A stretch of DNA of 25,552 nucleotides from Myxococcota bacterium (GCA_049969675.1 JBMFOP010000044.1:1-25552); one strand, 5' to 3'; numbered from the stretch's first letter, positions 3,163 through 24,964 are shown. Made by a program: numbers and translations. Notes: generated from the letters alone by a model not told the origin.

Positions 3163-5175
3163 TTACTTCTTTAACTCCCGCCTCTTCATATCTAAAAGTT
3201 TAAGCTCTCTTAAAGCATCTGTGCAGTCTGGATTACATTGAATTGCCTTCTCAAACTGCCTCTCCGCAAGGTCATCACGATTTATCCCTTTGTAGATATA
3301 GCCCATAAAGAGATAAGCCTTATCCAGCTTTGGATTCTTTGTAATCGCCGTGGCTATGGCATCCCTTGCCTTCTTGAGGACCTCCTGATTCTCGGGCTCT
3401 GACTGAAAGAGCGCCCAACCGTAATGGGCGAAGTACTCTGCCTCCTCTGGATAGAGGTCTATAGCCTCCTTAAAACTCTCAGCCGCTTTTATAAAGAGTC
3501 TCTTCTTTAGGTACTCCTCACCGGCCTGAAACTTCCCTTCTGCGGCAAGCAATCTCGTTACATCATCTGCTGCCTCAGCTTTGCTAACCTGTGTTATCCT
3601 GTTGATATATTCGCCTCTCCTCTGCTCATCAACGAGTGTATTGTGTGCCTCTGTAAGAATCTTAAAGAGCTCTTCAGCCATCTTCCTGACCTCTCTGCCG
3701 GCTGAATTTGGAATCCTGTCGGGGTGAAATTCCTTTGCAAGAGTTATATATGCCCTCTTGATTTCACCTATTGTTGACATCTGATTGACGCCCAGAAGGT
3801 CAAAATAATTTCCGCTGCGAGCCACGGTGAGCTTCTTTATAATCTTATTCTTTATCTCCCTATCCTCAAGCGGAAGAACTGTCTCCTGTTGTACCTTTGG
3901 TTGCTCGGGTTGTTTAATTGGAAGTGGAGGTGGGGCAACCGGGAGCGGAGGTGGTGCCTCCTGCCCTGCTGGATATTGAGATATAACCACCATACCGGTA
4001 ATTTTTAGTGCAAAGATGAATCTTAGCATCCTCTCCCTTGATATCTGCGAAGACATCAGTATATCCCTCAATGTCCTGCTCCCGTCAATGGATTTCAATA
4101 TACTCTCCTCATCTTCATCCATCAACATCTCCTGAAATCTCAATGACGGATTGGGGTTGGGATGAACATATTGGTTCTGATATTTTTCAAGATACTGCTC
4201 AATCTTTCCAACATCATAATTCCTTTTGATGCCTTCATAAATTAGCGATGCAACAGAGAGCTCAAGTGTGGTAATTGGTGTCTCAAAGTCCTCCTTGTAG
4301 TTGAATTGATAATCTCCCTCGGGCCAACCAAATATGTCGTAGAGTTTTATCTCAAGTTGTTTCTCAAGCCCATATTTGAGATTGTGTGGAGATATGGCTC
4401 CCATCTCAATAAGAATTGTCCCCTGCTGTCTGCCCGAATCCTTCATAAGTTTTACTGATTCATTGAGTTCCTCTTCTGTAATCATCTTCTCTCTGACAAG
4501 TACCCTCCCAAGGCACTCATTTAATAGATTGGACTTTACAAATATTGGTCTTCCATCCCTGATATAGACAATCTTTTTTATCTTCTCATACTTGAGGAGG
4601 AGGACACCACTCGCCTTTTTCTGATAAAATGCCGCAAGTAGTTCCGGGAAGGGAGTATCTCTGAGATTCCCCCGTGTACTTATCTCAAATGTCATCTCCT
4701 CTTCCTGTCTCTCCACCTCATCTCTCTCAGAGATACCCATTGAATCTGCAATGGTCTCTCCTCTTACTTCCTGCTTTGGCGGAGGGGCAAGACCCGGATA
4801 TTCAGAACCGAAAGTCTTTTTAAGGATGTTGAATATCTGCTCCAATTTTACCGGCTTGTCCAGATAGTCCAGTACACGATACTTCTTAATTGCTTCATTT
4901 CGATGACTCACAGCCCTGTATACACCACTTATCATCAGGATAGGGATGTTCTCTCCCTTTGGGCTCTTCCTTATCCTCTCTGCGAGCTGAAATCCATTCA
5001 TAACAGGGATGAGGACATCAAGGATTATAAAATCTACATTCTTGGATTCAAAGGTCTTGAGCGCCCAGTTCCCATCCTTTTCAACCAGAACTGAGAAACC
5101 TTCACCTTCCAGTGCATCCGATAAAAGCTTCTGCACACTCTTATCGTCTTCAACAATCAAAATCGTCTTACTCAT
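3163..5175 (-). CDS. Response regulator receiver + DUF4388-like + DnaJ J-domain + TPR protein
   Basis: REC (ILIVEDD...ILDVLIP...YLDKP); GNL...FPELL...SGVL...LYDIFGWPEGDYQF domain; Pro-rich linker; J-domain NYFDLLGV...LAKEFHPD with intact HPD; C-terminal TPRs. Confidence 0.85.
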   Translation of the reverse strand: MSKTILIVEDDKSVQKLLSDALEGEGFSVLVEKDGNWALKTFESKNVDFIILDVLIPVMNGFQLAERIRKSPKGENIPILMISGVYRAVSHRNEAIKKYRVLDYLDKPVKLEQIFNILKKTFGSEYPGLAPPPKQEVRGETIADSMGISERDEVERQEEEMTFEISTRGNLRDTPFPELLAAFYQKKASGVLLLKYEKIKKIVYIRDGRPIFVKSNLLNECLGRVLVREKMITEEELNESVKLMKDSGRQQGTILIEMGAISPHNLKYGLEKQLEIKLYDIFGWPEGDYQFNYKEDFETPITTLELSVASLIYEGIKRNYDVGKIEQYLEKYQNQYVHPNPNPSLRFQEMLMDEDEESILKSIDGSRTLRDILMSSQISRERMLRFIFALKITGMVVISQYPAGQEAPPPLPVAPPPLPIKQPEQPKVQQETVLPLEDREIKNKIIKKLTVARSGNYFDLLGVNQMSTIGEIKRAYITLAKEFHPDRIPNSAGREVRKMAEELFKILTEAHNTLVDEQRRGEYINRITQVSKAEAADDVTRLLAAEGKFQAGEEYLKKRLFIKAAESFKEAIDLYPEEAEYFAHYGWALFQSEPENQEVLKKARDAIATAITKNPKLDKAYLFMGYIYKGINRDDLAERQFEKAIQCNPDCTDALRELKLLDMKRRELKK

Positions 5176-5178
5176 AAA

Positions 5179-6618
5179 TTACTCTCCTGCCTGAAATTTA
5201 CAGGTTGCTGTAATGGTCTGACTCTCCATTGTATCTATATTGTAATTAAGGTTATCCGCCTTAGGGGCTGGTGTATATCTCGCCTTTGCGGTAATGGTCA
5301 CATCTATCTCCTGTGTTGGGTCACGTTCTGTAAGTTTATCCTTGAGCTTGAATGTCCACTTTCTATTTTTGTCAAATGAATTTGGCTCTATCACATCATC
5401 ACCATATAGACCTTTTCTTATACTCATACCCGGATATGTCTGAGTAAATACCTTTACATCCCCTCCATTCTCTATACAGGTAGAACAGAGATTGTCAACC
5501 TCAATTGAAATATAATCGTAGTTGCTGTCAAATGCTATCGGATTCAGGTTCTTATCTACGAGTGTAAGGGTAAAAGATTGAGAGGCGCCAGCAGGGAGTA
5601 CCTTCCCTGTTGGAAGAATGTTTGAAAACTCAGCACCCATATATGGGGCGCCAGACCAGAGAATCTTAAAGCACTTCCATATATCGGTCTCTCTGTCGTA
5701 TCTGCCATTTGGACCATCAAACTTTCCATTTGAATTTGTATCAATATAGAGTTCACCATTATCAAATTCACCATTGTCATTTGCATCCACAAACGGCTCA
5801 GAGATATCATCAAACGGTTCTCCTGAATCCCATTTCCCGTTATTGTTTAAGTCATCAAATCCCTCTTCGCCCTTTATCACTGCACAGATAGTCGCCAGTC
5901 CATCTCTCGGATTATTTATCACACCCGAGACCTCAGGGTTATTTACAGATGGCTCACCAGGGAGTGGATCCACATCCACAGGTGGATCCCCCGACGCTGT
6001 ATAGATGTAATATTCGGGATCGGTATTGTTGTCCGGCGTAATTATCTTGACAGAACCGGCCTCAGTAATGAAAGTGGGTCTTGGTCTTAGAATCGGTGTC
6101 CCCTTTGCATTCCTGACCTCCAGATCGCATCTCACCTGAATAGGTGTTGTAATACCTGCGGTATCAAGTGCACCAATATTTCTGGCAGAACAGGTAAATG
6201 TCATATTGCGATGATTTGCACCTGCGGACTCAACGAATTTAACGGTAACAGATGCTACCAGATTCTTTCCACTCGGAGTTGTAAAACTCGCCGTAACAGT
6301 TACCTCTCCAGCGGTGGTTGAGCTATAAAGGTCTATTGTTGCATAGCCGCCAATAGTAGATGCCTGTGCCTCCTTCTTAACTGTATCAGGGTCAAAACTA
6401 CCATCCGTGGTCAAAAAGTTTATATTTGTTCCATCAGGTGCAGTGCTGTCATCATATTCCAGATAGGCTGTAATCTTCAATGATGAGATTCCATCAGCCG
6501 GTATCTCTTTAGGATTTGCTGTAATAGAGAGACTGCTTGAGCTTGAACAATCGCAGTGAGATAAAATAATACCAGTAAAAATAAGGACAGATAAAAAATA
6601 ATACCTTCTAATAGTCAT
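5179..6618 (-). CDS. Lipoprotein with invasin/Big-1-like Ig domain and Dx(D/N)xNG Ca-binding-like repeats
   Basis: Start likely ATG 6618 (GGAGG upstream). Signal peptide ending LSHCDC. Big-1-like segment ANPKEIPADG...APDGTNINFLTTDGSF...GYATIDL; repeats DLNNNGKWDSGE, DANDNGEFDNGE, DTNSNGKFD. Confidence 0.75.
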   Translation of the reverse strand: MTIRRYYFLSVLIFTGIILSHCDCSSSSSLSITANPKEIPADGISSLKITAYLEYDDSTAPDGTNINFLTTDGSFDPDTVKKEAQASTIGGYATIDLYSSTTAGEVTVTASFTTPSGKNLVASVTVKFVESAGANHRNMTFTCSARNIGALDTAGITTPIQVRCDLEVRNAKGTPILRPRPTFITEAGSVKIITPDNNTDPEYYIYTASGDPPVDVDPLPGEPSVNNPEVSGVINNPRDGLATICAVIKGEEGFDDLNNNGKWDSGEPFDDISEPFVDANDNGEFDNGELYIDTNSNGKFDGPNGRYDRETDIWKCFKILWSGAPYMGAEFSNILPTGKVLPAGASQSFTLTLVDKNLNPIAFDSNYDYISIEVDNLCSTCIENGGDVKVFTQTYPGMSIRKGLYGDDVIEPNSFDKNRKWTFKLKDKLTERDPTQEIDVTITAKARYTPAPKADNLNYNIDTMESQTITATCKFQAGE

Positions 6619-6826
6619 CTTTCCTCCCAACAATTATTGATTATATTATAATCACTTACCAAATAATTCAACATAAATTTATTAACATCTTTTGTAATTT
6701 TGGATGTTGAAGAAATGTTTTTGAATAAATCTATCCCAGACCATCTTTAAAAGAATTTTTTAAAGAATTTGGTCTTATTTTATCAATAATTAAATTGCTA
6801 ATTCAAGATTAATCCGGACATTTGGG

Positions 6827-9082
6827 TCATCTTGTAAAATCTATCTGCACTACTGCATTCTCACAGGTTGGTGTCACATTACTATCTCTATAAATTCTAA
6901 AGTAGACTGGCATTGTATTGTTCTTACAGATATTCTTGTTCTCTACATTACCTGATTCATAGCAGGGTTTCTCGCCAAGCGGTTTCCCGTCAGGGCCGCT
7001 GCCCCCTCTAAAATCAGTATAGAAGCTATACTCCTGTGAATCACAATTCAGAAAAGTATTCCATTTAGGAGATGTACTACAATCTATCTCAAAAACATCA
7101 AGAAGATATTGCCTCTGTGGATTTGAAATTATCTTAATACTTATTCGGAAGTTGTCCCCATAAGTTATATCTTCATTGACATCATCAACAAAGGTTGCTT
7201 TATACCATGCCGACTTTCCAACAGGGAGCAGATTGGTCTGAATAGAGTACGATTGAGTCTTGTTAGAAAAGGATCCGAGGTCGGTTGCAGATAAACAACT
7301 ATCCCCACCTTGAATAGAAGAATATGCCTGACATTCACACCCATCTGCTACAACACCGTTTATATCATACCAATTACTCGCACAGGAAGAGATTTTGCAT
7401 CCATTACTACCATCACACTGAAAAGTCGTATGAATATCTGTAGGACACAGGATTTTGATGTCTGCATTATCCGTCTGTCCATCGCAATCATTATCCTTAC
7501 CATCACACCTCTCCTGCCCATCGGGTGTACAATGATACTCACAGCCATCAGAAGGGTCTTTATTGATATCATAATAACCCTGTTGACAGGAAACAACCTT
7601 ACAGACCATATCGGAGCACATCCCTATCGCATTAGGAGGCTGACAGGGACTGTTACATTTTCCACAATGCTGGCTGTTGTTCTTCACATCAGTCTCACAT
7701 CCATCCTCCCAGTTGTCATTGCAGTTTCCATAACCATAATTGCAGACATATTCGCAATGCCCCTGGACACAATTTGCCTCACTGGTATTGAAGGCGGGTG
7801 GACACATTGTATTTGCATTTAACTCATCTGTCTTGCCATTACAGTCGTTGTCAACTCCATCACATATCTCAATACCATTATTTGATTTGACACACTCCGC
7901 CTCACAGCCGTCATCATATAGGCCGTTATTGTCCCAGTAATTTGGTTCACACTCAGCTATTACACAGACCTTATCTCCATTCTTCTCTATGCAGGCAGTA
8001 GATGCTACATGTTTTTTTGCCTTATCCTTTAATGGACAGACATCATCCGGCAATCCATTGTCAATCTCACCATCGCAATCGTTGTCCTCCCCGTCACAGA
8101 TATCCACCCCTTTAAGTTTGGGTGCACAGTGGTACTCACATCCATCCTCTGGCTTTCCATTGATATCATAATAATCCGGCTCGCAGGTTGCACCCTCTCC
8201 CTTAAGAATCACCACGAGTTTTGGGCTGTCAATATCTGTATTTTCAATTATTACATTCGCCTGCTTTACCCCAGCCTTCTTTGGTTTGAACTGAACCTTT
8301 ATTTCAATGAATGCACCTTTCTCCTTTATTGGCGCCGGGAATGTTGGAAGTTCACTCAGTTCAAATTCTGCAATTTCAGGACCACCTGCATCTTCCACCA
8401 ACCCTTTATCGCCACCTGCATCTGTCCCCAATCCTTCATCAATATAGATATTTGTAATCTTAAGGTCCCCACCCGTAGAATTTGAAATTGTAATAGATTT
8501 CAGTTCGGATTTATTACCCGGATAAAGTTTTCCAAAGTCTATAGTATCTGGTGTAGCAACGATGGTTGGGTCAATCCCTCTCCCATAAAGAAGGATATTT
8601 TTAACCTTTGTGGATTTCCCTCCTGTAACAAGAAATATATTTACCTGATTCTGGGGAAGTGAGCCTACCTTCTTTGGGGAGTAAAAAACCTTCACTTTCT
8701 GGGTCTCATTGTAGTTAATAGATATGGTCTTTTTTTCAAGTGAGAGCTCATCACTCTTATTTGCAAAGTCAAGTGCAATATTAATCTTTGCCTTTGATAG
8801 GCTCTTATTTGTAATTGATATCTCCTGTCCACTCTTATCTCTGACCTGCACATCCCCAAAATTGATCTCCTCGGGGGTAACTGTTATACCGGCAATCTGC
8901 TCTGTCTCACCTTTCATACAGACCATCTTTCCCGTAGAATCTGCCTCACAGTGATAACCTCTGGGGCAGTCATCATTTGTGACACAGGGGAGGTCAGCAT
9001 AAAAATCTTGAGAACAGGTTGAAAGGGTTAATGCCAGACTCAAAATAAATAAGACAGATAAAAATTTCATTCCTCTCATCAT
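6827..9082 (-). CDS. Large Cys-rich surface lipoprotein with two choice-of-anchor D/ASH-type Ig domains and MopE-like metal-binding repeats
   Basis: Lipobox LSTC. Two PxxI(N/D)FG...I(T/S)N Ig-like domains. Repeats ICDGEDNDCDGEID, EICDGVDNDCNGKTDE, ERCDGKDNDCDGQTD and several D(I/N)NG...DGCE units. Start placed at ATG 9082 from the promoter position; 9079 or 9070 are also possible. Confidence 0.8.
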   Translation of the reverse strand: MMRGMKFLSVLFILSLALTLSTCSQDFYADLPCVTNDDCPRGYHCEADSTGKMVCMKGETEQIAGITVTPEEINFGDVQVRDKSGQEISITNKSLSKAKINIALDFANKSDELSLEKKTISINYNETQKVKVFYSPKKVGSLPQNQVNIFLVTGGKSTKVKNILLYGRGIDPTIVATPDTIDFGKLYPGNKSELKSITISNSTGGDLKITNIYIDEGLGTDAGGDKGLVEDAGGPEIAEFELSELPTFPAPIKEKGAFIEIKVQFKPKKAGVKQANVIIENTDIDSPKLVVILKGEGATCEPDYYDINGKPEDGCEYHCAPKLKGVDICDGEDNDCDGEIDNGLPDDVCPLKDKAKKHVASTACIEKNGDKVCVIAECEPNYWDNNGLYDDGCEAECVKSNNGIEICDGVDNDCNGKTDELNANTMCPPAFNTSEANCVQGHCEYVCNYGYGNCNDNWEDGCETDVKNNSQHCGKCNSPCQPPNAIGMCSDMVCKVVSCQQGYYDINKDPSDGCEYHCTPDGQERCDGKDNDCDGQTDNADIKILCPTDIHTTFQCDGSNGCKISSCASNWYDINGVVADGCECQAYSSIQGGDSCLSATDLGSFSNKTQSYSIQTNLLPVGKSAWYKATFVDDVNEDITYGDNFRISIKIISNPQRQYLLDVFEIDCSTSPKWNTFLNCDSQEYSFYTDFRGGSGPDGKPLGEKPCYESGNVENKNICKNNTMPVYFRIYRDSNVTPTCENAVVQIDFTR

Positions 9083-9088
9083 AAATAA

Positions 9089-9117
9089 ATTATATTTCAG
9101 CAAATTTACAATTGCAA
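9089..9117 (-). promoter_or_regulatory. Sigma70-type promoter, probably giving a leaderless mRNA
   Basis: TTGCAA (9117-9112), 17 bp, TATAAT (9094-9089), 6 nt, then ATG 9082; no SD sequence. Confidence 0.6.
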
Positions 9118-9885: not shown

Positions 9886-10641
9886 GTGAAGATTTTAGTT
9901 ACAGCAAAAAGGGTGACAGACCCTGATATGAAGATTAAGGTCAAGCCAGACGGGACTGGCATTGTCACTGATGGGATGAACTACAAGATTAATCCATTCT
10001 GCGAAATCGCTGTTGAAGAGGCGCTGAGGATTCGCGAGAAGGGGAATCAGGCTGAGATAGTAGTCATTGGAATCGGTCCCAAAGAGGCAGCAACCGAACT
10101 CAGGACTGCCCTTGCAATGGGTGCAGACAGGGCAATACTTGTCCTCTTAGAGAAATACTATGATTCAACCGTGGTAGCGAAGATTTTGAAGAAGATTGTG
10201 GAGGATGAAAAACCAGACTTGATTATCACAGGGAAACAGGCCGTAGATGATGATTCAAATCAGGCTTCACAGATGCTATCGGCACTCTTGGGGTATCCAC
10301 AGGCATGCTTTGCATCAAAGATTGAACTCATAGACGGTGGCAAGAAGGCAAAGGTCACCAGAGAGGTGGATGGCGGACTTGAGACAATTCAGGTAGAATT
10401 ACCGGCTATTGTCTCTGCTGACCTGAGATTAAATGAACCGAGATATCCAACAGTCCCAAACATTCTCAAGGCAAAGAAGAAGCCACTAAAGGAGATTCCT
10501 GTTGAATCACTCGGAATAGACATTACACCGCGAACAGAGTTTGTGAAAATGACCGAACCACCAACCCGTAAGGCCGGTATCAAAGTGCCGGATGTCGCAA
10601 CTCTGGTTGATAAATTAAAGAACGAAGCAAAGGTTATATAA
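9886..10641 (+). CDS. etfB: Electron transfer flavoprotein beta subunit
   Basis: GTG start after an AGGAGG RBS; KINPFCEIAVEEALR, LRTALAMGADRA, GKQAVDDD, REVDGG and LNEPRYP motifs. Confidence 0.96.
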   Translation: MKILVTAKRVTDPDMKIKVKPDGTGIVTDGMNYKINPFCEIAVEEALRIREKGNQAEIVVIGIGPKEAATELRTALAMGADRAILVLLEKYYDSTVVAKILKKIVEDEKPDLIITGKQAVDDDSNQASQMLSALLGYPQACFASKIELIDGGKKAKVTREVDGGLETIQVELPAIVSADLRLNEPRYPTVPNILKAKKKPLKEIPVESLGIDITPRTEFVKMTEPPTRKAGIKVPDVATLVDKLKNEAKVI

Positions 10642-10657
10642 AAGCAGGAGGTTAAAA

Positions 10658-11620
10658 ATGGCAAAAGTATTAATCATAGCAGAGCATACAAAAGGACAAA
10701 TCAAAAAGGCCACTCTCTCATCTATAACCGCTGCCACAAAAGTTGGTGGAGGATATTCAATAGTGGTGGTCGGCAAGGATGTAAAAGGGGTTGCAGACCT
10801 ATATGCAAAGTATGGCGCAGAGAAGGTCTTTGTGATTGATAACGACATCTTTAAAAATTACATAGCAGAGAACTATGCAGAGGCTATTGCACAATTGATA
10901 AAGGCAAATAACTTTGAATTTGTATTTGGCTCGGCCACTGCATTTACAAAGGACCTTCTACCAAGAATCGCTGCCAAGTTTGACGCAGGTATGGCTTCTG
11001 AGGTGCTCTTCATTGAGGTAAGTGGTGGCGATGTAATCTTTGCAAGACCTATGTGGGCTGGAAATGCTATTGCACACATCAAAATAACCTCACCGGTTAA
11101 GTTTGCCACAATCAGAGCCACAGAGTTTGACCATGCAAAGGAGGCGGCTACTTTATCTCCAGTGGAGGCATTTACCGCAAATGTTGATCCAGCAAAGGCA
11201 AAGGTAGAATATATTGAATTTGCTGAGACAAAGAGTGAGAGACCCGAACTCACAGAGGCAAGGGTAGTAATATCCGGCGGAAGAGGTGCAAAGGGTCCCG
11301 AGGGATTCAAACTCATTGAAGAGTTAGCGGACCTATTAAACGCAGCAATCGGTGCATCAAGAGCGGCGGTAGACTCTGGCTGGGTTCCCAATGACCTTCA
11401 GGTTGGCCAGACTGGAAAGATTGTTGCTCCAGAACTATATATCGCCTGTGGTATTTCTGGTGCCATTCAGCATCTGGCAGGAATGAAAGGTTCCAAGGTC
11501 ATTGTTGCAATCAATAAAGATGAAGAGGCACCAATCTTTCAGGTAGCAGATTATGGACTGGTGGCAGATATGTTTAAGGCGATTCCAGAGATCATCTCAG
11601 CCATAAAGGCCTCCAGATAA
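10658..11620 (+). CDS. etfA: Electron transfer flavoprotein alpha subunit
   Basis: RPELTEARVVISGGRG, GASRAAVDSGW, QVGQTGKIVAPELYIACGISGAIQHLAGM FAD-binding motifs; AGGAGG RBS. Confidence 0.96.
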   Translation: MAKVLIIAEHTKGQIKKATLSSITAATKVGGGYSIVVVGKDVKGVADLYAKYGAEKVFVIDNDIFKNYIAENYAEAIAQLIKANNFEFVFGSATAFTKDLLPRIAAKFDAGMASEVLFIEVSGGDVIFARPMWAGNAIAHIKITSPVKFATIRATEFDHAKEAATLSPVEAFTANVDPAKAKVEYIEFAETKSERPELTEARVVISGGRGAKGPEGFKLIEELADLLNAAIGASRAAVDSGWVPNDLQVGQTGKIVAPELYIACGISGAIQHLAGMKGSKVIVAINKDEEAPIFQVADYGLVADMFKAIPEIISAIKASR

Positions 11621-11652
11621 AGCATTTTTTGAATTTAATAAAGGAGTAAAAA

Positions 11653-13782
11653 ATGTCCTTTATGCACCAGAGTCTTTTATCTTTTCTGTTTGCATCAGAT
11701 AAATCTTCTTTAATCCCGACACATAACAGTGTCCTTGCTATGATACTCTTTATTCTGGTCATTGCAACGGGGATTGCAGTCTTTGCCTATCTTATGTATC
11801 AGAGATGGCAGATATTGAAGATTGGAAAATATGAAGATAGATTCTCAAATTTCACAACCCGAATCAAGAATGTAATAGTCGTAGCATTCTTCCAGAAGAG
11901 GATTCTGAATGAACTTCAGGCGGGAATAATGCACGCCTTTATATTCTGGGGTTTCTGTGTGGTCTCCATCAACTCTCTCACATTTATTGGAGAGGGATTT
12001 ATAAATGGATTCCATCTGCCGTTTCTTGGACCGGATCAGATATTGGGAAAGATCTATGGATTTACCAAGGACCTATTTGAGGTTCTGGTGCTGATTGGAC
12101 TTGCCATCGCATTTTACAGAAGGCTCATTTTGAAACCAAAGCGACTGACATACTCATTTGAGGCAAATCTCATCCTGATATTCATTCTGCTACTTATGAT
12201 AAGCGACTTCTTTATGTTTGGTATAAAACTAAATGCAAATGAACTATCTCAGGAATTTTCGAAATTCGTCTTTGCCTCAGCGATTGCAGGTAAACTGGTC
12301 TCCAGATGGTCTATGGATGCACAGCAGACATTTTATATGGTAAATTTCTGGCTGCACCTTGTAATATTCTTCTCCTTTTTAAATATCCTGCCACTTTCAA
12401 AACACTTTCATGTCATTACATCCATACCCAATACATATTTCGTAAAGCTCACTCCAAAAGGTCAATTGACAAAGATGAACCTTGAGGATGAGACGCTTGA
12501 ATCTTTTGGGACTAGCAGAATAGAGGACCTCACCTGGAAACAGATCTTTGATACCTGGACCTGTACAGAATGTGGGAGATGTCAGACATATTGCCCTGCT
12601 TATGAGACCGGCAAACCACTCTCTGATAAAGAGATAAATCAAGATCTCAAACACCATATTTATGATGAGGCGCCATACATTATTGAGGAGAGAAAGTATA
12701 AATCCCAACAAAATACAGATTCAACACAGGGTAGTTCACAGGGGAATAAGCAGGGAGGAGAGTCCCATAAAAGACCAAATATGATAGGAGAGATTATCAA
12801 AGAGGATACCATCTGGGCATGTACAACCTGCGGATGGTGTGAGGAGGCCTGCCCGGTACAGATTGAGAATATAGGGAGGATTATAGATTTTAGAAGATAC
12901 CTCGTGCTCACAGAATCCAGATTTCCCAAAGAGGCAACATCTGTATTTAAGGGGCTTGAGAACAACTCCAATCCATGGGGACTCGGCTCAAATAAACGTC
13001 AGGATTGGGCAGAGGGTGTTGAGGGAGTAAGGTGGGCATCCGAAAATCCCGATTTTGAGTATCTGTTTTATGTCGGTTGTGCAGGGAGCTTTGATGACAG
13101 GAACAAGAAGATAACAAAGGCTATGGTAAAGATTCTAAACATCGCAGGGATTAACTTTGCTATGCTCGGAAATGAAGAGGGGTGTTGTGGAGACTCCGCG
13201 CGAAGACTCGGAAACGAATATCTCTATCAGACTCTCGCACAGACAAATATAGAGACATTCAACAACTACAAAGTCAAGAAGATAATCACCACCTGCCCCC
13301 ATGGATACAACACCATTAAGAATGAATATCCCCAATTCGGCGGAAATTATGAGGTGTATCACCATACAGAATTCATTCTTAAACTTATAAATGAAGGAAG
13401 GTTGAAGTTAAAGAACCCGATCAATCAGACCCTAACATATCACGACTCCTGCTACCTCGGTAGAATAAATGATATTTATGAAGAGCCGAGAGAGATATTG
13501 AAGAGGCTCAGCGGAGTAAATTACAAAGAGATGCCAAGAAATCATTATCAATCCTTCTGTTGTGGTGCTGGCGGTGGGAGGATGTGGTTGGAGGAGCATA
13601 TAGGGACAAGAATCAATATCAACAGAACAGAAGAGGCATTAAGCCTAAACCCGGACACCATTGCAGTAGGTTGCCCATTCTGTCTGATAATGCTTGATGA
13701 TGGAATCAAAGATAAGGGCGCAGAGGAGAAGGTGAAGGTTCTGGACATATCCGAAATCGTTGCAAAAGCCATAGAGCAATAG
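11653..13782 (+). CDS. Membrane-bound Fe-S oxidoreductase (FadF/HdrF-like; cytochrome b-type TM domain, 2x[4Fe-4S], 2x CCG), probable EtfAB:quinone oxidoreductase
   Basis: N-terminal TM helices with MHAFIFWGF, FWLH and SKHFH histidines; CTECGRCQTYCP and CTTCGWCEEACP; CCG domains EGCCG...TCPH and HDSC...FCCGAGGG...CPFC; directly follows etfBA. Confidence 0.9.
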   Translation: MSFMHQSLLSFLFASDKSSLIPTHNSVLAMILFILVIATGIAVFAYLMYQRWQILKIGKYEDRFSNFTTRIKNVIVVAFFQKRILNELQAGIMHAFIFWGFCVVSINSLTFIGEGFINGFHLPFLGPDQILGKIYGFTKDLFEVLVLIGLAIAFYRRLILKPKRLTYSFEANLILIFILLLMISDFFMFGIKLNANELSQEFSKFVFASAIAGKLVSRWSMDAQQTFYMVNFWLHLVIFFSFLNILPLSKHFHVITSIPNTYFVKLTPKGQLTKMNLEDETLESFGTSRIEDLTWKQIFDTWTCTECGRCQTYCPAYETGKPLSDKEINQDLKHHIYDEAPYIIEERKYKSQQNTDSTQGSSQGNKQGGESHKRPNMIGEIIKEDTIWACTTCGWCEEACPVQIENIGRIIDFRRYLVLTESRFPKEATSVFKGLENNSNPWGLGSNKRQDWAEGVEGVRWASENPDFEYLFYVGCAGSFDDRNKKITKAMVKILNIAGINFAMLGNEEGCCGDSARRLGNEYLYQTLAQTNIETFNNYKVKKIITTCPHGYNTIKNEYPQFGGNYEVYHHTEFILKLINEGRLKLKNPINQTLTYHDSCYLGRINDIYEEPREILKRLSGVNYKEMPRNHYQSFCCGAGGGRMWLEEHIGTRININRTEEALSLNPDTIAVGCPFCLIMLDDGIKDKGAEEKVKVLDISEIVAKAIEQ

Positions 13783-14751: not shown

Positions 14752-16278
14752 TTATTTATTATACCAGCTCGGTTTATAGAGTATATGGTAATTTTTAGGG
14801 TCAAGAGGGTTCATCTTCATATAGATATTTCTAAGCCCGACCTTTAGAGAGACCAGAAGCCACCATAAATACATATTGCGCTTATATCTATACTTTGAGG
14901 TAAGACCTTTTAATATCCATCGGGGTCTTATGTAATCAGATGTAATCTCTGCCATTAAATCCAGAATCTCCTCTCGTGTAAGATGTTCAGAATCCATAAC
15001 AGGTGTACTCCAATCAAACTCCTCAAAATCTACATCTTTTAGCCAGCCTTTTGTTATTGCCTCATCATACATAATTGTACCAGGCACAGGGGTGAGCGGA
15101 TGAAAGGCGGGGAAATCAAGTCCAAGTCTCTTTGCATATTCTCCAAGCGCAAGTAGTGATTCTCTACTCTCCCCTCTGTGCCCTACAATAAAAGTGCCCT
15201 GAAGAAATACCTGTGGATATTTTCTCTTAAATATGCTGATTATCTCTTCCGTGATTGAGGGTTTATAGAATTTCTTATTAAAACTTTCAAGTACATCTTT
15301 TTCACTCCTCTCAATTCCGATACAGATGTGCACAAGTCCACTTCTAACCATCTTTTCAAGTATCCCGTTCTTTTCATCTCTTAAAAGACAGTCTGCTCTC
15401 ATAAATGCAAACCATTGAACAGGTAGATTCTTCTTAATCAAAAGCCCTGCAAATTCATCATTCCACTCGGGCAGCAGATTGAAGGAGTCATCCACAAATA
15501 TCATCATCTGTTTTTTATAGACCCTATAGAGATATTCAACCTCCTCAACTGTATATTGCGGGCTTTTTGTCCTGAATCTCGGAATGAGTTTGACCCTGCC
15601 GTTCTCAATCCTTCTCTCGGCATTATTTACCCAGAAGGCACAGAAGCTACATCTTCCGGTGCATCCTCGTGAGTGATGTATCGTGGTGCCACCCGGCGAG
15701 AATAGGTAATCTGACTTTCCGTAGAGATGCATAGGGAGCATATCATATGCTGGCATTGGAAGGGTATTGAGGTCATCAATTAGCCCTCTCGGCTCTGTTA
15801 TTATGATCTGTTCTTCCCTCCTAAAGGCTATACCCTTTACTCTCTCAATCCCGGATGCCCCACCTTCTATATGTTGTAACAATTCTAATAATGTGACCTC
15901 TCCTTCTCCAATGACAACATAGTCAACCACATCTGAAGAGAGAGTCCATTCTATGGTATTTGCAAAGTGGGTTCCACCCGCTATGGTTACGATATCCCTA
16001 TCAATAGATTTTGCAAGCCTCAGCACCTTCAATGCCTCGGACGCATACATAGAGTGATTTTCACCAACAGCCACCACATCAGGTCTGAAGTCAATAATCT
16101 CTCTTGCAAGTGATTTATATCCTATATGTAGAGGGAGACAGTCAAGCACCTTAACATCAATCTTCTCTCTTCTGAGAAATGCAGCAAGACATATCAGATT
16201 TTGAGGTACAAGATAGTTATCCTGTTCGTGTATAAAGGGCCAGAATTTACGAGGACCATGTACTAATAGTACTCTCAT
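14752..16278 (-). CDS. Cobalamin-binding radical SAM protein (class B), #1
   Basis: B12-binding domain (IAGGTH, VIGEGE), LPMPAYDML, SRGCTGRCSFC, TPVPGT; ATGA overlap with the upstream radical SAM gene. Confidence 0.93.
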   Translation of the reverse strand: MRVLLVHGPRKFWPFIHEQDNYLVPQNLICLAAFLRREKIDVKVLDCLPLHIGYKSLAREIIDFRPDVVAVGENHSMYASEALKVLRLAKSIDRDIVTIAGGTHFANTIEWTLSSDVVDYVVIGEGEVTLLELLQHIEGGASGIERVKGIAFRREEQIIITEPRGLIDDLNTLPMPAYDMLPMHLYGKSDYLFSPGGTTIHHSRGCTGRCSFCAFWVNNAERRIENGRVKLIPRFRTKSPQYTVEEVEYLYRVYKKQMMIFVDDSFNLLPEWNDEFAGLLIKKNLPVQWFAFMRADCLLRDEKNGILEKMVRSGLVHICIGIERSEKDVLESFNKKFYKPSITEEIISIFKRKYPQVFLQGTFIVGHRGESRESLLALGEYAKRLGLDFPAFHPLTPVPGTIMYDEAITKGWLKDVDFEEFDWSTPVMDSEHLTREEILDLMAEITSDYIRPRWILKGLTSKYRYKRNMYLWWLLVSLKVGLRNIYMKMNPLDPKNYHILYKPSWYNK

Positions 16279-17681
16279 TTCATCATTGCATAAATGCCAT
16301 AAAGCAGATTTCTGGGAGTGATAGTTCTTATCTTGAAGAGGTGTCTAATTATCATTTTGGGTCTCAGGTAGAACCTTCTGGTTGCAATCTTCTGTAACTT
16401 TAAGAGCCTCTCAGCAGATATTGTATCTGTTGATATAACCATAGTGGATGGATCTGGATTAAATGTTGTAAAATTCTCCCAATCTCTTCTGTTCAGCTTC
16501 CCCTTTGCAATAAGCTGGTCATATAGTTGTGAACCCGGGAATGGGACAGTAATAGCAAATTTTGCAAAATCCACATCGGACTCAATTGAAAACCTGATTG
16601 TCTCTTCAATCTCATCCTCTGTCTCATCAGGTAGCCCTATCATAAAAAGCCCTACTATATGAATATTCTCTTTGTGGGCAATCTGAATCATCTCTTTTGT
16701 GAGCGACAGGTCAAGTCTTTTATTTATTGAATTGAGAACCCTCTGACTACCAGATTCAATACCAAACAACAATCTCCTCGCACCGGACCTGTACATAAGA
16801 TTCAGCAATTTCTGATTCAATCTATCGGGTCTCGTTTCCGAAATCCAGACAACCTTCTTATTTATTCCTCTTCGTATTAATTCTTCACAGAGTAAAGTTG
16901 TATGTTCTTCATCAAACGGGAATATGGGGTCTATAAATCCTATCTGCCTGACATTGAAATTTTTATAGAGATATTCAAATTCATCGGCAATTGATGCTGG
17001 AGAACGTTTTCTATATATCTTCCCCATATAGTCAAGAGAGCAATAGGTACATCTATAAGGGCAACCCCTTGAGCCGGATATTGAGAGTGTCGGTTTTGCA
17101 ATATCTGCAAAAGGTAACATACCATATTCTTTATAGGGGAAGAGTTGCCACGCAGGAAATGGTAGGTCGTCCAGATTTGTAGGTGGTTCTCTATTCGGGG
17201 TATTTATATTTTTTCCATTCTCCCTGAAGGCGATACCTTTGATGTCTCTTAATTCTCTTTTCTTTTCAAGATAATCAACAATCTCCAGAATCGTCTCCTC
17301 CCCCTCACCGTGTGTAATGATATCTGCGATCCCGGTATTTAAGAAATCCTCATAAAACAGGCTTGCGTGAATTCCACCCAAAACTATCTTTGTCTCTTTT
17401 GATTTATCTCGTATGATCTGGCACATCCTCTCAACAACAGGGGCAGAAGGGGTGAGTGTGGTAATCCCAACAAGATCCGGCCTGAATAACCCTATCCTAT
17501 TTGCAAGGTCCTCGTAAGAGAGGCTCTCTCCAAAATAGTCCATCACCTCAACTTCAAAACCCTTTTTAATAAGGATGGCGGCGATATACGCGAGCCCAAT
17601 ACAGGGCATCGCCTGTAAAAGTCTGGAGAATCTTCCAAACTTCTCTCTTACTATAGGTGGATTTATAAGTAAGGCACGCAC
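16275..17681 (-). CDS. Cobalamin-binding radical SAM protein (class B), #2
   Basis: LLINPP, IGLAYIAA, LGGIHAS, HGEGEET, SRGCPYRCTYC, FGIESGS, PFPGS; GTG start overlaps the TAG of the upstream 16-aa ORF. Confidence 0.93.
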   Translation of the reverse strand: MRALLINPPIVREKFGRFSRLLQAMPCIGLAYIAAILIKKGFEVEVMDYFGESLSYEDLANRIGLFRPDLVGITTLTPSAPVVERMCQIIRDKSKETKIVLGGIHASLFYEDFLNTGIADIITHGEGEETILEIVDYLEKKRELRDIKGIAFRENGKNINTPNREPPTNLDDLPFPAWQLFPYKEYGMLPFADIAKPTLSISGSRGCPYRCTYCSLDYMGKIYRKRSPASIADEFEYLYKNFNVRQIGFIDPIFPFDEEHTTLLCEELIRRGINKKVVWISETRPDRLNQKLLNLMYRSGARRLLFGIESGSQRVLNSINKRLDLSLTKEMIQIAHKENIHIVGLFMIGLPDETEDEIEETIRFSIESDVDFAKFAITVPFPGSQLYDQLIAKGKLNRRDWENFTTFNPDPSTMVISTDTISAERLLKLQKIATRRFYLRPKMIIRHLFKIRTITPRNLLYGIYAMMK

Positions 17682-17731
17682 TACTTTTTAGGTCTAATTC
17701 CTTTTGGTCTTGGATTTGGTCTCCAGTTCAT
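17681..17731 (-). CDS. Unannotated 16-aa Arg/Pro/Lys-rich peptide MNWRPNPRPKGIRPKK (candidate RiPP precursor or leader peptide)
   Basis: Minus strand reads ATG AAC TGG AGA CCA AAT CCA AGA CCA AAA GGA ATT AGA CCT AAA AAG TAG. GGAGG (17742-17738) lies 6 nt before the ATG. The TAG shares its G with the GTG of radical SAM #2. Confidence 0.75.
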   Translation of the reverse strand: MNWRPNPRPKGIRPKK

Positions 17732-17749
17732 AATAAACCTCCAAATCGT

Positions 17750-17778
17750 AATTTATAACAACAAATTTTTATTGTCAA
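17750..17778 (-). promoter_or_regulatory. Sigma70-type promoter for the peptide-rSAM-rSAM operon
   Basis: Perfect TTGACA (17778-17773), 17 bp, TAAATT (17755-17750); predicted start ~17743, just before the RBS. Confidence 0.6.
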
Positions 17779-17887: not shown

Positions 17888-19306
17888 TCAATTCATCCCG
17901 AGTAATTTTCTAATCTGATTTGCTACAAGGTGGATACCAAATTTTAATAAGGTTAAAAAATCAACTTTGTAGAAGAGATTCCTGATTCTGGATGGTCTGA
18001 GATAAAATCTTATGTAACCTTTTGTCTGGTAATATTCCAATCTTTCACGACTCACACCTTGTAGTTCAAGTGTATTTCCAACAATCCTGCCGGTTGCCGA
18101 ATATGATTCCTTTCTGAGTCTTAGCCCCCCAATCCCCTTTTTTGCCCACTCATAGACCTCTGTACTCGGAAATGGCGCCAGAATCGCCAGATTTATAAAG
18201 TCTGGATTTAATTTCATAATAAAGTCAAGTGTCTGTTTTATAGTCTCTTCATTCTCATATGGCAGCCCGAGTATAAAATTTGTATCAACCTTTATGCCAG
18301 CCTCTTTTGTCCATCTGATTGCCTGCTCGGTCATCTCTATGGTAAATCCCTTCCTGATACCATCTAAAATTCTCTGATTCCCACTCTCCGCCCCATAGAC
18401 AATTGAGAAGACATTTGCCTCTTTCATCGCCAGAAGCATCTCTTTATTAACCCTATCAATACGAGTGGAGGCAATATATCTGACTCTGTTTAGCCCACGG
18501 CGTGTGATCTCATTAAATAATCTAATTGTATAATCAGGGTCAATGGTTAAGGTGTCGTCCGCAAAGAAGATCTGTGTAGCTTTATATTGCCTGATATCCC
18601 TTTCAATCTCTTCTACTACCAGTTCATAAGACCTGACCCTGACATGGTGTCCCATCGGCTGATAACAGAATACACATCTATTTGGACAACCTCTCGCAGT
18701 GATTACAGGCACCTCTATCCCTTTAAAGTAGTGAGGCTTATATCTCTCAAATGGGAATCCTTCAAAATCCGGCATTGGAAGGGTATCAATATCCTGAATA
18801 AGTTCCCTCGGGGGATTTATCTTAATATTATCGCCATCTCTATATGCAAGACCCTTTATATGTTCAAATGAATTTGAATTATTCAGCGAGTCCATCAGTT
18901 CAAGTAGAGTATTCTCACCTTCCCCAAAGACCACAAAGTCAATAGCGCTATATCTTTTCAGGGTATCCTCCGGTAGTGCGCTCGGGTGTGAGCCACCAAC
19001 CACAATTTTAATTGAGCTATCAATTTTCTTTATTTCCTGAGCAATATATGCCCCGTCATCCATTTCAGAGGTACAATGTATATTTATACCTACCAGATTC
19101 TGTTCGGATTTAGAGAGTATCTGTCTGAGTGTTTTAATAGGGTTTATGTATGCCCTCGCATCAAAAATCTTACTATCAATTCCATTCTTTTTCATAAATG
19201 CATTTAAATATGCAATGCCGAGTGGGGGACCTTTTTGGTTCATCCCGAGCTCTTTATCAATCCCGAAGGTGTGATATGGTATAATAAATAAAATCTTACC
19301 GCGCAT
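17888..19306 (-). CDS. Cobalamin-binding radical SAM protein (class B), #3
   Basis: PPLGIAYL, VGGSHPS, FGEGE, TARGCPNRCVFC, YGAESGN, FILGLP, APFPST motifs. Confidence 0.93.
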   Translation of the reverse strand: MRGKILFIIPYHTFGIDKELGMNQKGPPLGIAYLNAFMKKNGIDSKIFDARAYINPIKTLRQILSKSEQNLVGINIHCTSEMDDGAYIAQEIKKIDSSIKIVVGGSHPSALPEDTLKRYSAIDFVVFGEGENTLLELMDSLNNSNSFEHIKGLAYRDGDNIKINPPRELIQDIDTLPMPDFEGFPFERYKPHYFKGIEVPVITARGCPNRCVFCYQPMGHHVRVRSYELVVEEIERDIRQYKATQIFFADDTLTIDPDYTIRLFNEITRRGLNRVRYIASTRIDRVNKEMLLAMKEANVFSIVYGAESGNQRILDGIRKGFTIEMTEQAIRWTKEAGIKVDTNFILGLPYENEETIKQTLDFIMKLNPDFINLAILAPFPSTEVYEWAKKGIGGLRLRKESYSATGRIVGNTLELQGVSRERLEYYQTKGYIRFYLRPSRIRNLFYKVDFLTLLKFGIHLVANQIRKLLGMN

Positions 19307-22067: not shown

Positions 22068-23541
22068 ATTTTTGTTAATAAAGTAAAGCATATTACATAT
22101 ACAACGTCCATAAGCAGGATTAATAAGACACTCATTTTTACATTTGTCCAACAGGATACTTCGTTCATCTCTATTGTAAAATTGATATCCGATGGAATAT
22201 CGATTACCCTTATGCAGTTCATAAAAATCTATAAATCTATTTAATCTATGAATCACATTATATCTCTCAGGGTAAAGATGCATTGGAGAGCCAGGGGGAG
22301 AGTTCAGTAGGAATTGAAAATGACAGGATATAACGACTGACCTTCCCAATCTCTTTAATCATTGACTTAGTCTCCTTTACAGTCTCCTGGTCTTCAAACG
22401 GAAGTCCAGAAAAAAGAATCAATCTCATTCGTACTTTATGCCTGACTGCATACTTTATTACTTGCATTAAAGACTCATTACTATATTTGCCCATTGAATT
22501 AAGCCGCCTTTGTTTCTCAGACAGAGAGTATACAAGTAATAGAATTGTTGACCTATGATTTAATTTTGCAAATTTATCTATAAAATCTTCAGTAGGCAGG
22601 TTATGCCATATATCTTGATTAACTGAAATATCGGTAAAATATCTGGCGAGTTCATTAAAAATTTCAACAAATTTCTTTTCTTCTTTGTCATAATAAAAAG
22701 CAGAAGTGAAGTTTTTAATTCCTAACTTATAATATGTTTCTATATCACCAAGTATATAATCAACTTGTTTCATTATAGGTTTATTCCTTCCAAGTATATT
22801 TCTTAAATTATATCCTCCTGCGCAGAAACTGCAATTATATGCACAGCCGCGTCCTATAACTATATAATGAATGGGAGAGAGCCAGAATGAGAGCATATCC
22901 AACAGGTCCATAAGACCTGGATTTTTATAATCATAGACATACTTTAATTTAGCATATCTCTCATAGTTATTAAGGGCAGTAATATCTGTAAATTTGAAAG
23001 CATTAAACTCATCCTGACCTGCAAAGACAAATTCTTTATTCATGATAATGTTATTGCCCATTTTATAAATCAGGTTGGGTATGTCAGAAAAGTCTGTACC
23101 CCCATTAAGATATTTTTGCATAAACAAAAGTAATGGAATCTCCCCCTCGCCTTTTATCACACCATCAATAAAGTCAAAAAGATTCAGGATCTCTTCTGCA
23201 TAGATACTCGCAGTTAATCCACCTAATAATATAAAAGATTCAGGATAGATGCTCTTAATCTTTCTTGCTATCTCCATACATTCATAAGCCTGATGGTTCC
23301 ACATTAAGGATATTCCATATACCTTTGCTCTATTATTTTTTATTATATCCTCAACGCTTATATTTTGATGAACGACCTTTTCAACCCCAATGTGAATTAT
23401 CTTCGTTTTTATGCCGTTTGTCCTCAATAAATTCGCCATAGAAAATAAGCCGGCTGGAATAATATTTATAAAACCAACTCTACCAAGCGGTCTGAAATAA
23501 TGATTAAATTTTGGTGTATGGATAAATATCAAATCGTACAT
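22056..23541 (-). pseudogene. Cobalamin-binding radical SAM protein #4, split by a +1 frameshift at 22294-22298 (pseudogene, recoding or sequencing error)
   Basis: LGGLTAS, KGEGE, GRGCAYNCSFC in the 22267-23541 ORF. Removing one C from CTC TCC CCC TGG gives ...PTELSPGSPMHLYPERY..., joining the 22056-22349 frame and restoring the PGS motif seen in the paralogs (494 aa in total). Confidence 0.8.
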
Positions 23542-23557
23542 ATCAAAATTCTATCTC

Positions 23558-24964
23558 TTAATATGGCACATTCTTAAAGATAGAGAGTTTTAATACATTG
23601 ATACCATTTCTAATCAGTGAATAATAATTCGGTACATCTTTTATATTTCTTATAATTCTATCTATATCAATATAAAATTTTCTAACTGCGATCTTCTTTA
23701 GTTCCATAAGTCTATCTTCAGATACCTCACATATACTTATAGGTTCACTATAAAATGTATCATACCTTATCAATTTATCAATTATCTTTGAGAGTGGATA
23801 TCTCTCTTCTGCAAAACGAAAAAATGCCGTGTCTGGATAAGGTGTAACAAATGAGACACTGGCCGTGTGCAATGGTAATTTTTGCATCAATTCTATTGTG
23901 TCCATTATATCCCCTTCTGTCTCCGTTGGAAAACCAAACATAAAAAATCCACCTATAAGCCTTGATACCCCTTTTAATCTGTATGTATTTTCTATTGTCT
24001 TCTCAATCTTCATATTCTTCCCAGATATATCAAGAATCCTTTGAACAGCACTCTCAAATGCAATATTTATTCTGAAAAGGCCTATCTCCTTCATAATGAA
24101 TAATAACTCCTCAGAAAACAGGTCCCCTCTTACACCTGAAGGTATTGCATAATGTAATTCCTTTTTATAAGGTAGTGCTTCAAAGAGTTCCAGTGTCTTT
24201 TTGTTGTTTGCATTGATGGTATCATCTAAAAAGTCAATCTCCTCAACCCCAAACTTCTTCTTTACAAGATTAATCTCTTCAATTATTCTTTCTATACTAA
24301 AATATCTTATTCTCCTGCCAAAGATATTATGACAGAACTTACATCCAAATGGACAGCCACGAGAGGACATTAATGGATAGATTCTATCTGTGGCTACAAC
24401 AAGATTAAATGCGGTTCCAAAGTATTTGAAATAATCCTCCATATTGATCAAAGAAAAATCTGGGATTGGCAATATATCAATATTTTCTACAAACTCCGAT
24501 GGACCGGTCTCAATAATTTCTTTATTTCTCCTATATATTATTCCACTGACATCTGATGGCTCAACATTCTCTTCAATCCTTCTTATTAGTTCAAGGGAAC
24601 TTACCTCCCCCTCACCAATTACTCCATAGTCTATAAAAGGATTCTGCTCAAACTCAATTCTCTTAAATGAGGAAATATGAGGACCACCGAGAATAATCTT
24701 TATGTCCGGAAAAGAATTTTTTATTGCCTCGGTCATTCTTCTCATAAAAACGGTCTCACTCGTCATATTGGTGATACCAATAATATCGGGATTTAATTCC
24801 CTAATAATAGAGGGTATTTTTTTAACCTTAATTTTATTTATGTGTGCATCTAAAATTCTTACACTGTGCCCATATTTTTTTAGAAATGTCCCAACATAGA
24901 GGAGCCCAATGGGCAGAGGTGATATCGGGGTATTTGAGAATGGTTTAATTAAAAGGACATCCAT
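23558..24964 (-). CDS. Cobalamin-binding radical SAM protein (class B), #5
   Basis: LLIKP, PIGLLYV, LGGPHIS, IGEGE, SSRGCPFGCKFC, FMFGFPTET, TPYPDT motifs. Confidence 0.93.
   Translation of the reverse strand: MDVLLIKPFSNTPISPLPIGLLYVGTFLKKYGHSVRILDAHINKIKVKKIPSIIRELNPDIIGITNMTSETVFMRRMTEAIKNSFPDIKIILGGPHISSFKRIEFEQNPFIDYGVIGEGEVSSLELIRRIEENVEPSDVSGIIYRRNKEIIETGPSEFVENIDILPIPDFSLINMEDYFKYFGTAFNLVVATDRIYPLMSSRGCPFGCKFCHNIFGRRIRYFSIERIIEEINLVKKKFGVEEIDFLDDTINANNKKTLELFEALPYKKELHYAIPSGVRGDLFSEELLFIMKEIGLFRINIAFESAVQRILDISGKNMKIEKTIENTYRLKGVSRLIGGFFMFGFPTETEGDIMDTIELMQKLPLHTASVSFVTPYPDTAFFRFAEERYPLSKIIDKLIRYDTFYSEPISICEVSEDRLMELKKIAVRKFYIDIDRIIRNIKDVPNYYSLIRNGINVLKLSIFKNVPY

Follow-up and report, generated by a model that had tools for sequence, protein, structure and literature searches.

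Gene arrangement and constraint at the micropeptide locus

We analyzed a 25,552-nucleotide stretch of DNA from a Myxococcota bacterium (JBMFOP010000044.1, positions 1 to 25552; hereafter, the window), which is part of a genome of 3.05 Mb with a guanine-plus-cytosine content of 39%. The one sequencing run listed as containing the stretch is a hot-spring metagenome, which is possibly its source; no RNA run was listed. The minus strand of the window carries a short open reading frame (ORF) for a micropeptide with a Trp-Arg-Pro (WRP) motif, and the ORF is followed by genes for two enzymes, R2 and R1, that combine B12-binding and radical S-adenosylmethionine (SAM) domains (Table 1). The ORF starts with the ATG at 17731, spans 16 codons, encodes MNWRPNPRPKGIRPKK followed by a stop codon, and ends at 17681. 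Its TAG stop codon and the GTG start codon of R2 have a G in common, and the stop codon of R2 overlaps the ATG of R1 (ATGA). An earlier reading of the same DNA (the original prediction) had described the ORF and these overlaps, along with a promoter, a GGAGG Shine-Dalgarno (SD) sequence, and AGACC repeats spaced 12 and 15 nt apart, and all of these features were confirmed; the repeats start at 17722, 17710, and 17695. It had missed three further B12-binding radical SAM genes in the window (about 15 such paralogues are present genome-wide) and an additional peptide gene copy elsewhere in the genome.

Table 1. Features of the window locus and of related loci
Feature	Position	Strand	Remark
Sigma-70-type promoter-like site, TTGACA-17-TAAATT	17750..17778	minus	Putative; sequence match
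Shine-Dalgarno sequence GGAGG of the peptide gene	17738..17742	minus	Present in 9/9 genus-level copies
16-aa Trp-Arg-Pro micropeptide gene	17681..17731	minus	Likely leaderless precursor; core W-R-P-x-P is residues 3-7
R2, B12-binding radical SAM enzyme, 468 aa	16275..17681	minus	GTG start, without an SD sequence of its own
R1, B12-binding radical SAM enzyme, 508 aa	14752..16278	minus	Steady partner of the peptide family
R3, B12-binding radical SAM gene upstream	17888..19306	minus	Syntenic in the genus; neighbor, system membership putative
pilY1-linked copies of the peptide gene	Own genome L040, L041, L092; congeners L035, L036, L038
N-terminal domain resembling the recognition element (RRE) of peptides that are ribosomally synthesized and modified after translation (RiPPs)	L111:1518-1787; also L114, L121, L122, L129, L133, L139, L148, L161		Candidate domain on family methyltransferases

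Taken alone, the promoter-type match occurred at the frequency expected by chance (46 sites in the region versus 43.7 in shuffled sequences), but TTGACA recurred 47 to 55 nt 5' of the ATG in all five enzyme-linked copies of the peptide gene, with differing spacers. None of these five copies had an SD sequence before the R2 start.

The nine genus-level copies of the peptide gene showed 14 synonymous alleles and one nonsynonymous allele (Arg to Lys), counted over 9.3 synonymous and 35.7 nonsynonymous sites, and the other reading frames over the ORF were interrupted by stop codons. The naive P value for this constraint, about 3e-9, is overstated because the copies are kin. Because the enzyme-linked copies were located via the enzyme and the others were confirmed via PilY1, peptide identity was not imposed by the pattern used for searching. 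In two congeners, the R2 orthologues (80% and 78% identical) were preceded by an identical peptide with the same SD sequence and overlap, and the upstream DNA had diverged; enzyme orthologues in the genus were only 78 to 83% identical. Judged from these sequences, the 16-codon ORF is under purifying selection and is more than a chance reading frame. The expectation in the original prediction that orthologous enzymes would be preceded by a constrained peptide was thus borne out. The first four codons (17720 to 17731) and the Asn6 codon were identical in all nine copies despite synonymous options, a pattern that constraint on the start region or gene conversion may explain.

Both enzymes scored above the Pfam cut-offs for the B12-binding and radical SAM domains, and the three cysteines of the R1 CxxxCxxC motif were invariant in 36 R1 sequences. 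There were 515 R1 relatives at an E value of 1e-60 or better, and the R2 family comprised 581 proteins at the cut-off used. R1 and R2 fell under the cut-off of every listed NCBIfam family (TIGR03975, ApyD, BchE, HpnJ, and TsrM-type were tested); the best score was 151 of 481 bits for R1 and 248 of 481 bits (BchE) for R2. Databases label the two families generically or as BchE-like cyclases. The structural model of R1 (predicted local distance difference test [pLDDT] score, 88.5) had the fold of B12-binding radical SAM enzymes, with AprD4, TsrM, MgmA, and CysS as its nearest matches.

Distribution of the peptides and their gene neighborhoods

Scanning metagenomes with an alignment of R1 yielded 307 stretches, of which 283 were confirmed, and we kept the best 80 (46 to 83% identity). 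An ORF was counted as a peptide gene if it was SD-led, was no longer than 50 aa, and had W-R-P-x-P close to its start. Such an ORF was present in 36 of the 80 R1 loci and in none of 80 reversed or 80 complemented controls. When any start codon was allowed, the count rose to 42 of 80, including a probably spurious ORF at L114, but missed L130, a three-core variant. A looser rule gained only two loci, which is at the control level. Of 58 loci with at least 1,500 nt upstream, 33 had an SD-led peptide and 37 had one with any start codon. We also merged the R1 sequences of 79 loci (L139 was excluded for internal stops) and again allowed any start codon. A peptide was found in 34 of 51 well-covered clusters at 95% identity and in 7 of 13 clusters at 65% identity. 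The R1 tree for these 79 loci was a quick version.

The 26 distinct SD-led peptides were either 9 to 20 aa long or 32 to 41 aa long with three or four tandem cores, and 1 to 7 residues preceded the Trp. Position x of the core was Ser in 20 of the 26, and the residue after the second Pro was Arg, Ile, or Lys. Three cores were present in L128 (5904), L130 (4679), and L137 (4673), and four were present in L133 (3171); multi-core peptides occurred in two separate R1 clades of the quick tree. The original prediction had defined the peptide by three Arg-Pro units. What the family shares is a single W-R-P-x-P-[R/I/K] core at the N terminus; the three units, like the AGACC spacing, are peculiar to this genus.

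R1 relatives carried the labels Omnitrophota, Nitrospirae, Myxococcota, Methylomirabilis, and others. In a scan of the phylum, R1 was found at 50% identity or more in 5 of 401 genomes (three congeners, G004, and G162), and all five had a peptide on the same contig. In G004, the peptide has 21 aa, and its gene precedes by 142 nt an R1-R2 pair whose order is swapped. In G162, a 28-aa peptide is encoded next to an R2-like gene (36%), with R1 about 9 kb away. The converse search, with the pattern SD-Met-x-WRPxP in 271 genomes, matched 31 places outside the genus. The 26 that were inspected were off-frame in long genes, cut by stops, or at the start of a long protein, and the pattern is blind to longer N termini, such as those of the G004 and G162 peptides. 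With a two-mismatch DNA pattern, matches outside the genus in the 401 genomes were at the control level, and no SD-led short ORF was found among 30 inspected matches or among 14 matches in viral contigs. Four short loci of distant R1-like proteins (35 to 37%) had no peptide. These sequence comparisons suggest that the WRP peptides and R1 form a real RiPP-like family. A literature search that included four literal core motifs and left subscription papers mostly outside its reach found no description of the family, which could be listed in genome-mining supplements.

R1 was the steady partner of the peptides, and R2 was less so. An R2 relative (at least 40% identity) was near R1 in 25 of the 80 loci, placed before, after, or facing it, and a scan of genome contigs with R2 alone found two loci, one of which was a congener. 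Of 120 listed R2 matches, 16 were apparently co-located with an R1 match or locus, compared with 1.0 by jitter; 7 of the 16 came from this genus or genome, and we take the count as indirect support for a wider linkage. Other radical SAM groups were found in at most 7 of 85 loci. The R3 group reached 7 of 85, and 6 of these were from this genus.

A class I methyltransferase was encoded in 51 of the 80 R1 loci, usually between the peptide and R1. No orthologue was found in the window genome, where the best match was generic (E value of 1.5e-8), or in any of the 401 phylum genomes, the latter a weak negative with no positive control and only five candidates scored per genome. Because the methyltransferase is common in the family but absent here, and R2 is found in only 25 of 80 loci, the window locus belongs to a reduced branch and is not typical of the family. 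Some family methyltransferases carry an N-terminal domain, which in the model of the L111 protein (pLDDT of about 95) consisted of four strands, three helices, and a strand, a layout that we take to be that of an RRE. Atlas leads from this domain to PqqD/MftB clusters reached 0.80 to 0.82, under the 0.9 bar, and fold searches of the methyltransferase model, which barely tested its N-terminal part, returned only class I methyltransferases. We regard the RRE-like domain as a model-based lead.

A second copy of the peptide gene, with its own SD sequence, was located 17 to 22 nt 3' of the pilY1 stop codon in all four genomes of the genus. The pilY1 gene (PilY1 is 1,302 aa, PF05567) is the last in a run of prepilin-type genes, and three of the four genes upstream of it carry prepilin N-methyl motifs. 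In all four genomes, the copy was followed by a terminator-like hairpin and U run with no coupled gene behind it. In the window genome, this copy encodes the identical peptide and is split over the overlapping ends of C47 (start) and C61 (end). No peptide was found within 450 nt 3' of pilY1 in three of three genomes outside the genus, and the idea of a general pilY1 link was rejected on these orthologues. G001 had seemed to retain the peptide but not the enzymes, and we rejected this idea since its contig begins inside R3, where R2 and R1 would follow. The PilY1 proteins at L098 to L103 end in a short aromatic motif, which in G010 is a core-like Trp-Arg-Pro, probably by chance.

The other neighbors of R1 varied and included glycosyltransferases, PMT_2-type transferases, O-antigen ligase, lpxC, ruvABC-like, Tol, and U32-family genes. 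The U32-family genes were beside R1 or R2 in five loci (L123, L127, L183, and L093, which form one group, and L121), and they were the sole protease or exporter candidates among the neighbors scanned; the window genome has none. It is possible that the U32-family protein, from a family with an Fe-S hydroxylase role, is an extra tailoring enzyme. In G002 (L021:9391-11400, also L104), a UbiA prenyltransferase gene overlaps the R1 stop codon and a polyprenyl synthase gene adjoins it. Both genes are absent from the window, and a prenylated product was dropped because they were not among the shared families. Within the window, two more B12-binding radical SAM genes are located at 22267 to 23541 and 23558 to 24964. 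One of them encodes a 424-aa protein that is closest to TIGR04190, under its cut-off, and the G002 counterpart of this protein ends after about 171 aa. Positions 9886 to 13782 contain two EtfB-/EtfA-like genes, recognized by eye, and then a membrane CCG/4Fe-4S oxidoreductase gene. Positions 3163 to 9103 contain genes for a response regulator-DUF4388-DnaJ-TPR protein, an Ig-like lipoprotein-type product, and an Ig/MopE-repeat Cys-rich protein.

A candidate leaderless precursor and alternative roles

A core that is constrained, tracks an enzyme, and is sometimes tandemly repeated is most simply read as a substrate. On balance, we consider it probable that the peptide is a leaderless RiPP-type precursor that R1 and R2 C-methylate. 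The original prediction had likewise proposed a nearly leaderless precursor modified by both enzymes; the multi-core forms fit a precursor, and the modification itself is what we infer. The peptide, R2, and R1 would be made from one transcript, with R2 and R1 started by reinitiation. Since only 1 to 7 residues precede the Trp, R1 would bind the core itself and would C-methylate unactivated carbons of Pro, Arg, or Trp, and R2 would make a second change on the peptide. Any methyl transfer would proceed via methylcobalamin. In most relatives, the class I methyltransferase would add an N- or O-methyl group, a step that the window branch would do without. Single-core peptides would need little or no trimming, and multi-core forms may be cut by general proteases. 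The pilY1-linked copy would raise the peptide supply when the pilus-tip genes are on.

This chemistry has precedents in published systems. Methylation is the commonest reaction of B12-binding radical SAM enzymes on peptides (PMC11285071; PMC10849626), and the residues methylated are Pro, Val, Ile, and Thr in the clavusporin precursor (PMC10849626) and Phe, Val, and Pro in bottromycin (PMC11285071).

Several results weigh against a leaderless, methylated precursor. Clavusporin methylation is largely leader dependent (PMC10849626), whereas the WRP peptide has no leader. Even with any start codon allowed, 21 of the 58 well-covered R1 loci had no nearby peptide, and a 9-row R1 clade had neither a peptide nor a variant in the stretches examined, several of which were short. 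The invariance of the W, R, P, and P residues was partly built into the search rule. No RRE was found in R1 or R2, and no match to the N-terminal domain of the methyltransferases was found in the window genome. That domain, an extension on only 7 of 24 aligned methyltransferases, was not matched by Pfam PqqD and gave only weak winged-helix matches, and four loci that carry it (L129, L139, L148, and L161) had no nearby peptide. The original prediction had noted that no protease, exporter, or obvious RRE domain is adjacent, and no protease or exporter was conserved among the scanned families shared by at least 4 of 85 loci or among 60 neighbors. Finally, the neighbors were often glycosyltransferases, lpxC, or a UbiA-type gene, and these, together with the roughly 15 paralogues in the genome, make envelope substrates plausible for the enzymes.

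In a reading that we consider rather unlikely, the peptide is a genuine small protein with a trans-acting role in its unmodified form, as a partner or regulator of the enzymes or of some other target, and R1 and R2 tailor an envelope sugar or lipid, as the surrounding B12-binding radical SAM paralogues would. Neighborhoods rich in GT2, GT4, PMT_2-type transferases, O-antigen ligase, lpxC, and UbiA would fit it, but these glycan genes varied by locus and the peptide, the methyltransferase, R1, and R2 persisted. An unmodified partner would also be consistent with the lack of a peptide at about a third of the well-covered loci, with the scanned neighbors lacking a protease or exporter, and with a pilY1-linked copy far from any enzyme. 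However, the tandem cores seen in two clades are better explained by a product that is excised than by a partner that binds, and the RRE-like domain on some family methyltransferases also speaks against this reading.

It is improbable that the peptide is a substrate whose main chemistry is not methylation, with R1 or R2 making a cross-link (e.g., Trp to Pro) or a rearrangement. In its favor, the aromatic residue of the core is followed by Pro residues at fixed spacing, the B12-binding radical SAM enzyme PbsB makes an aryl C-C cross-link in a RiPP (PMC12257519), no relative of R1 with a solved structure is more than 20% identical to it, and the best fold match of R1, AprD4, is a dehydratase. 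Against it, PbsB links two aromatic rings that are both hydroxylated and depends on earlier enzymes (PMC12257519), each WRP core has a single aromatic residue, and methylation is what most characterized class B enzymes of RiPP pathways carry out (PMC11285071).

The least probable alternative is a cis-acting leader, in which translation of the ORF or stalling at its Pro/Arg codons sets the output of R2 and R1 and the peptide has no further fate. Some regulatory leaders are Pro/Arg-rich, as this sequence is, and the peptide stop codon overlaps an SD-less R2 start here and in four relatives, but this is an unlikely sole role given that 15 of the 36 family peptides are on the strand opposite R1, a 142-nt spacer separates the peptide from R1 in G004, a hairpin and U run, not a coupled gene, come after the pilY1-linked copies, and the five leaders have no conserved RNA structure. 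Thus, the location upstream of the enzyme and on its strand that a leader would always have holds at the window locus but not across the family. The opposite-strand peptides and the enzyme-free copy after pilY1 also indicate that the translational coupling of R2 put forward in the original prediction, although present here and in four relatives, is a local arrangement rather than the purpose of the peptide.

If the peptide is a precursor, our guess is that its product has a cell-envelope or motility-linked housekeeping role. In a bolder version, which we think is improbable, B12 radical enzymes would recognize a leaderless micro-RiPP, as short as 9 residues, by its core alone and would methylate or cross-link it into a cationic peptide; in this genus, it would be wired into the type IV pilus tip operon, with a product that serves as a pilus-associated component or signal. 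If true, it would be the first link of a B12-modified peptide to pilus function. For peptides of this kind from uncultured bacteria, hints at biological function such as the pilY1-linked copy are rare. The precursor reading would provide a substrate for two large unnamed families of B12-binding radical SAM enzymes (515 and 581 proteins), and leaderless modifiers of 9- to 16-residue peptides would be useful tools for methylating Pro, Arg, or Trp. The peptide is short enough for synthesis, which makes the claim directly testable.

Comparison with known systems

The WRP locus resembles RiPP systems in that a short precursor appears to be encoded, as an SD-led ORF with the signature of purifying selection, and in that enzymes are kept beside it (36 of 80 loci compared with 0 of 80 controls, and five of five phylum genomes); the dedicated protease or exporter of such systems was not seen in the scanned neighbors. 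R1 and R2 have the N-terminal B12-binding domain and the radical SAM domain with CxxxCxxC that characterize class B enzymes. R1 shares the two-domain fold of TsrM, MgmA/QCMT, CysS, TokK, and AprD4 (Foldseek E values of 5e-22 to 2e-17), but the solved folds are only 15 to 20% identical to it, and the match names no substrate.

One parallel is with the clavusporins of the Streptomyces mpc cluster, in which a B12-binding radical SAM enzyme acts on a small peptide of ribosomal origin, whose role is physiological rather than antibiotic, and methylates its Pro residues among others (PMC10849626). The WRP locus falls outside the mpc family. The clavusporin precursor MpcA is 39 aa long with a needed leader and a hydrophobic core, and its cluster includes a DUF5825 partner, an S9 peptidase, and a transporter (PMC10849626); WRP peptides are cationic and 9 to 20 aa long or have three or four tandem cores, are leaderless, and have no such genes conserved nearby. 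In addition, MpcB has CX7CX2C (PMC10849626), compared with CX3CX2C in the WRP-linked enzyme.

Bottromycin (BotRMT1-3) and polytheonamide (PoyB/PoyC) use several class B radical SAM enzymes per precursor, and bottromycin includes Pro methylation (PMC11285071), but no YcaO, protease, or long leader or follower is found among the shared WRP neighbors. Against TIGR03975, which has a cut-off of 282 bits, R1 reaches 82 bits and R2 reaches 105 bits. In the biphenomycin-type pbs cluster, PbsB acts on a short aromatic/Arg motif of a RiPP precursor; it needs an MNIO, an RRE partner, an arginase, and a protease (PMC12257519), none of which is among the shared WRP neighbors. What this locus appears to add to the family is a branch lacking the methyltransferase, together with R2 as a partner and a peptide gene copy linked to pilY1.

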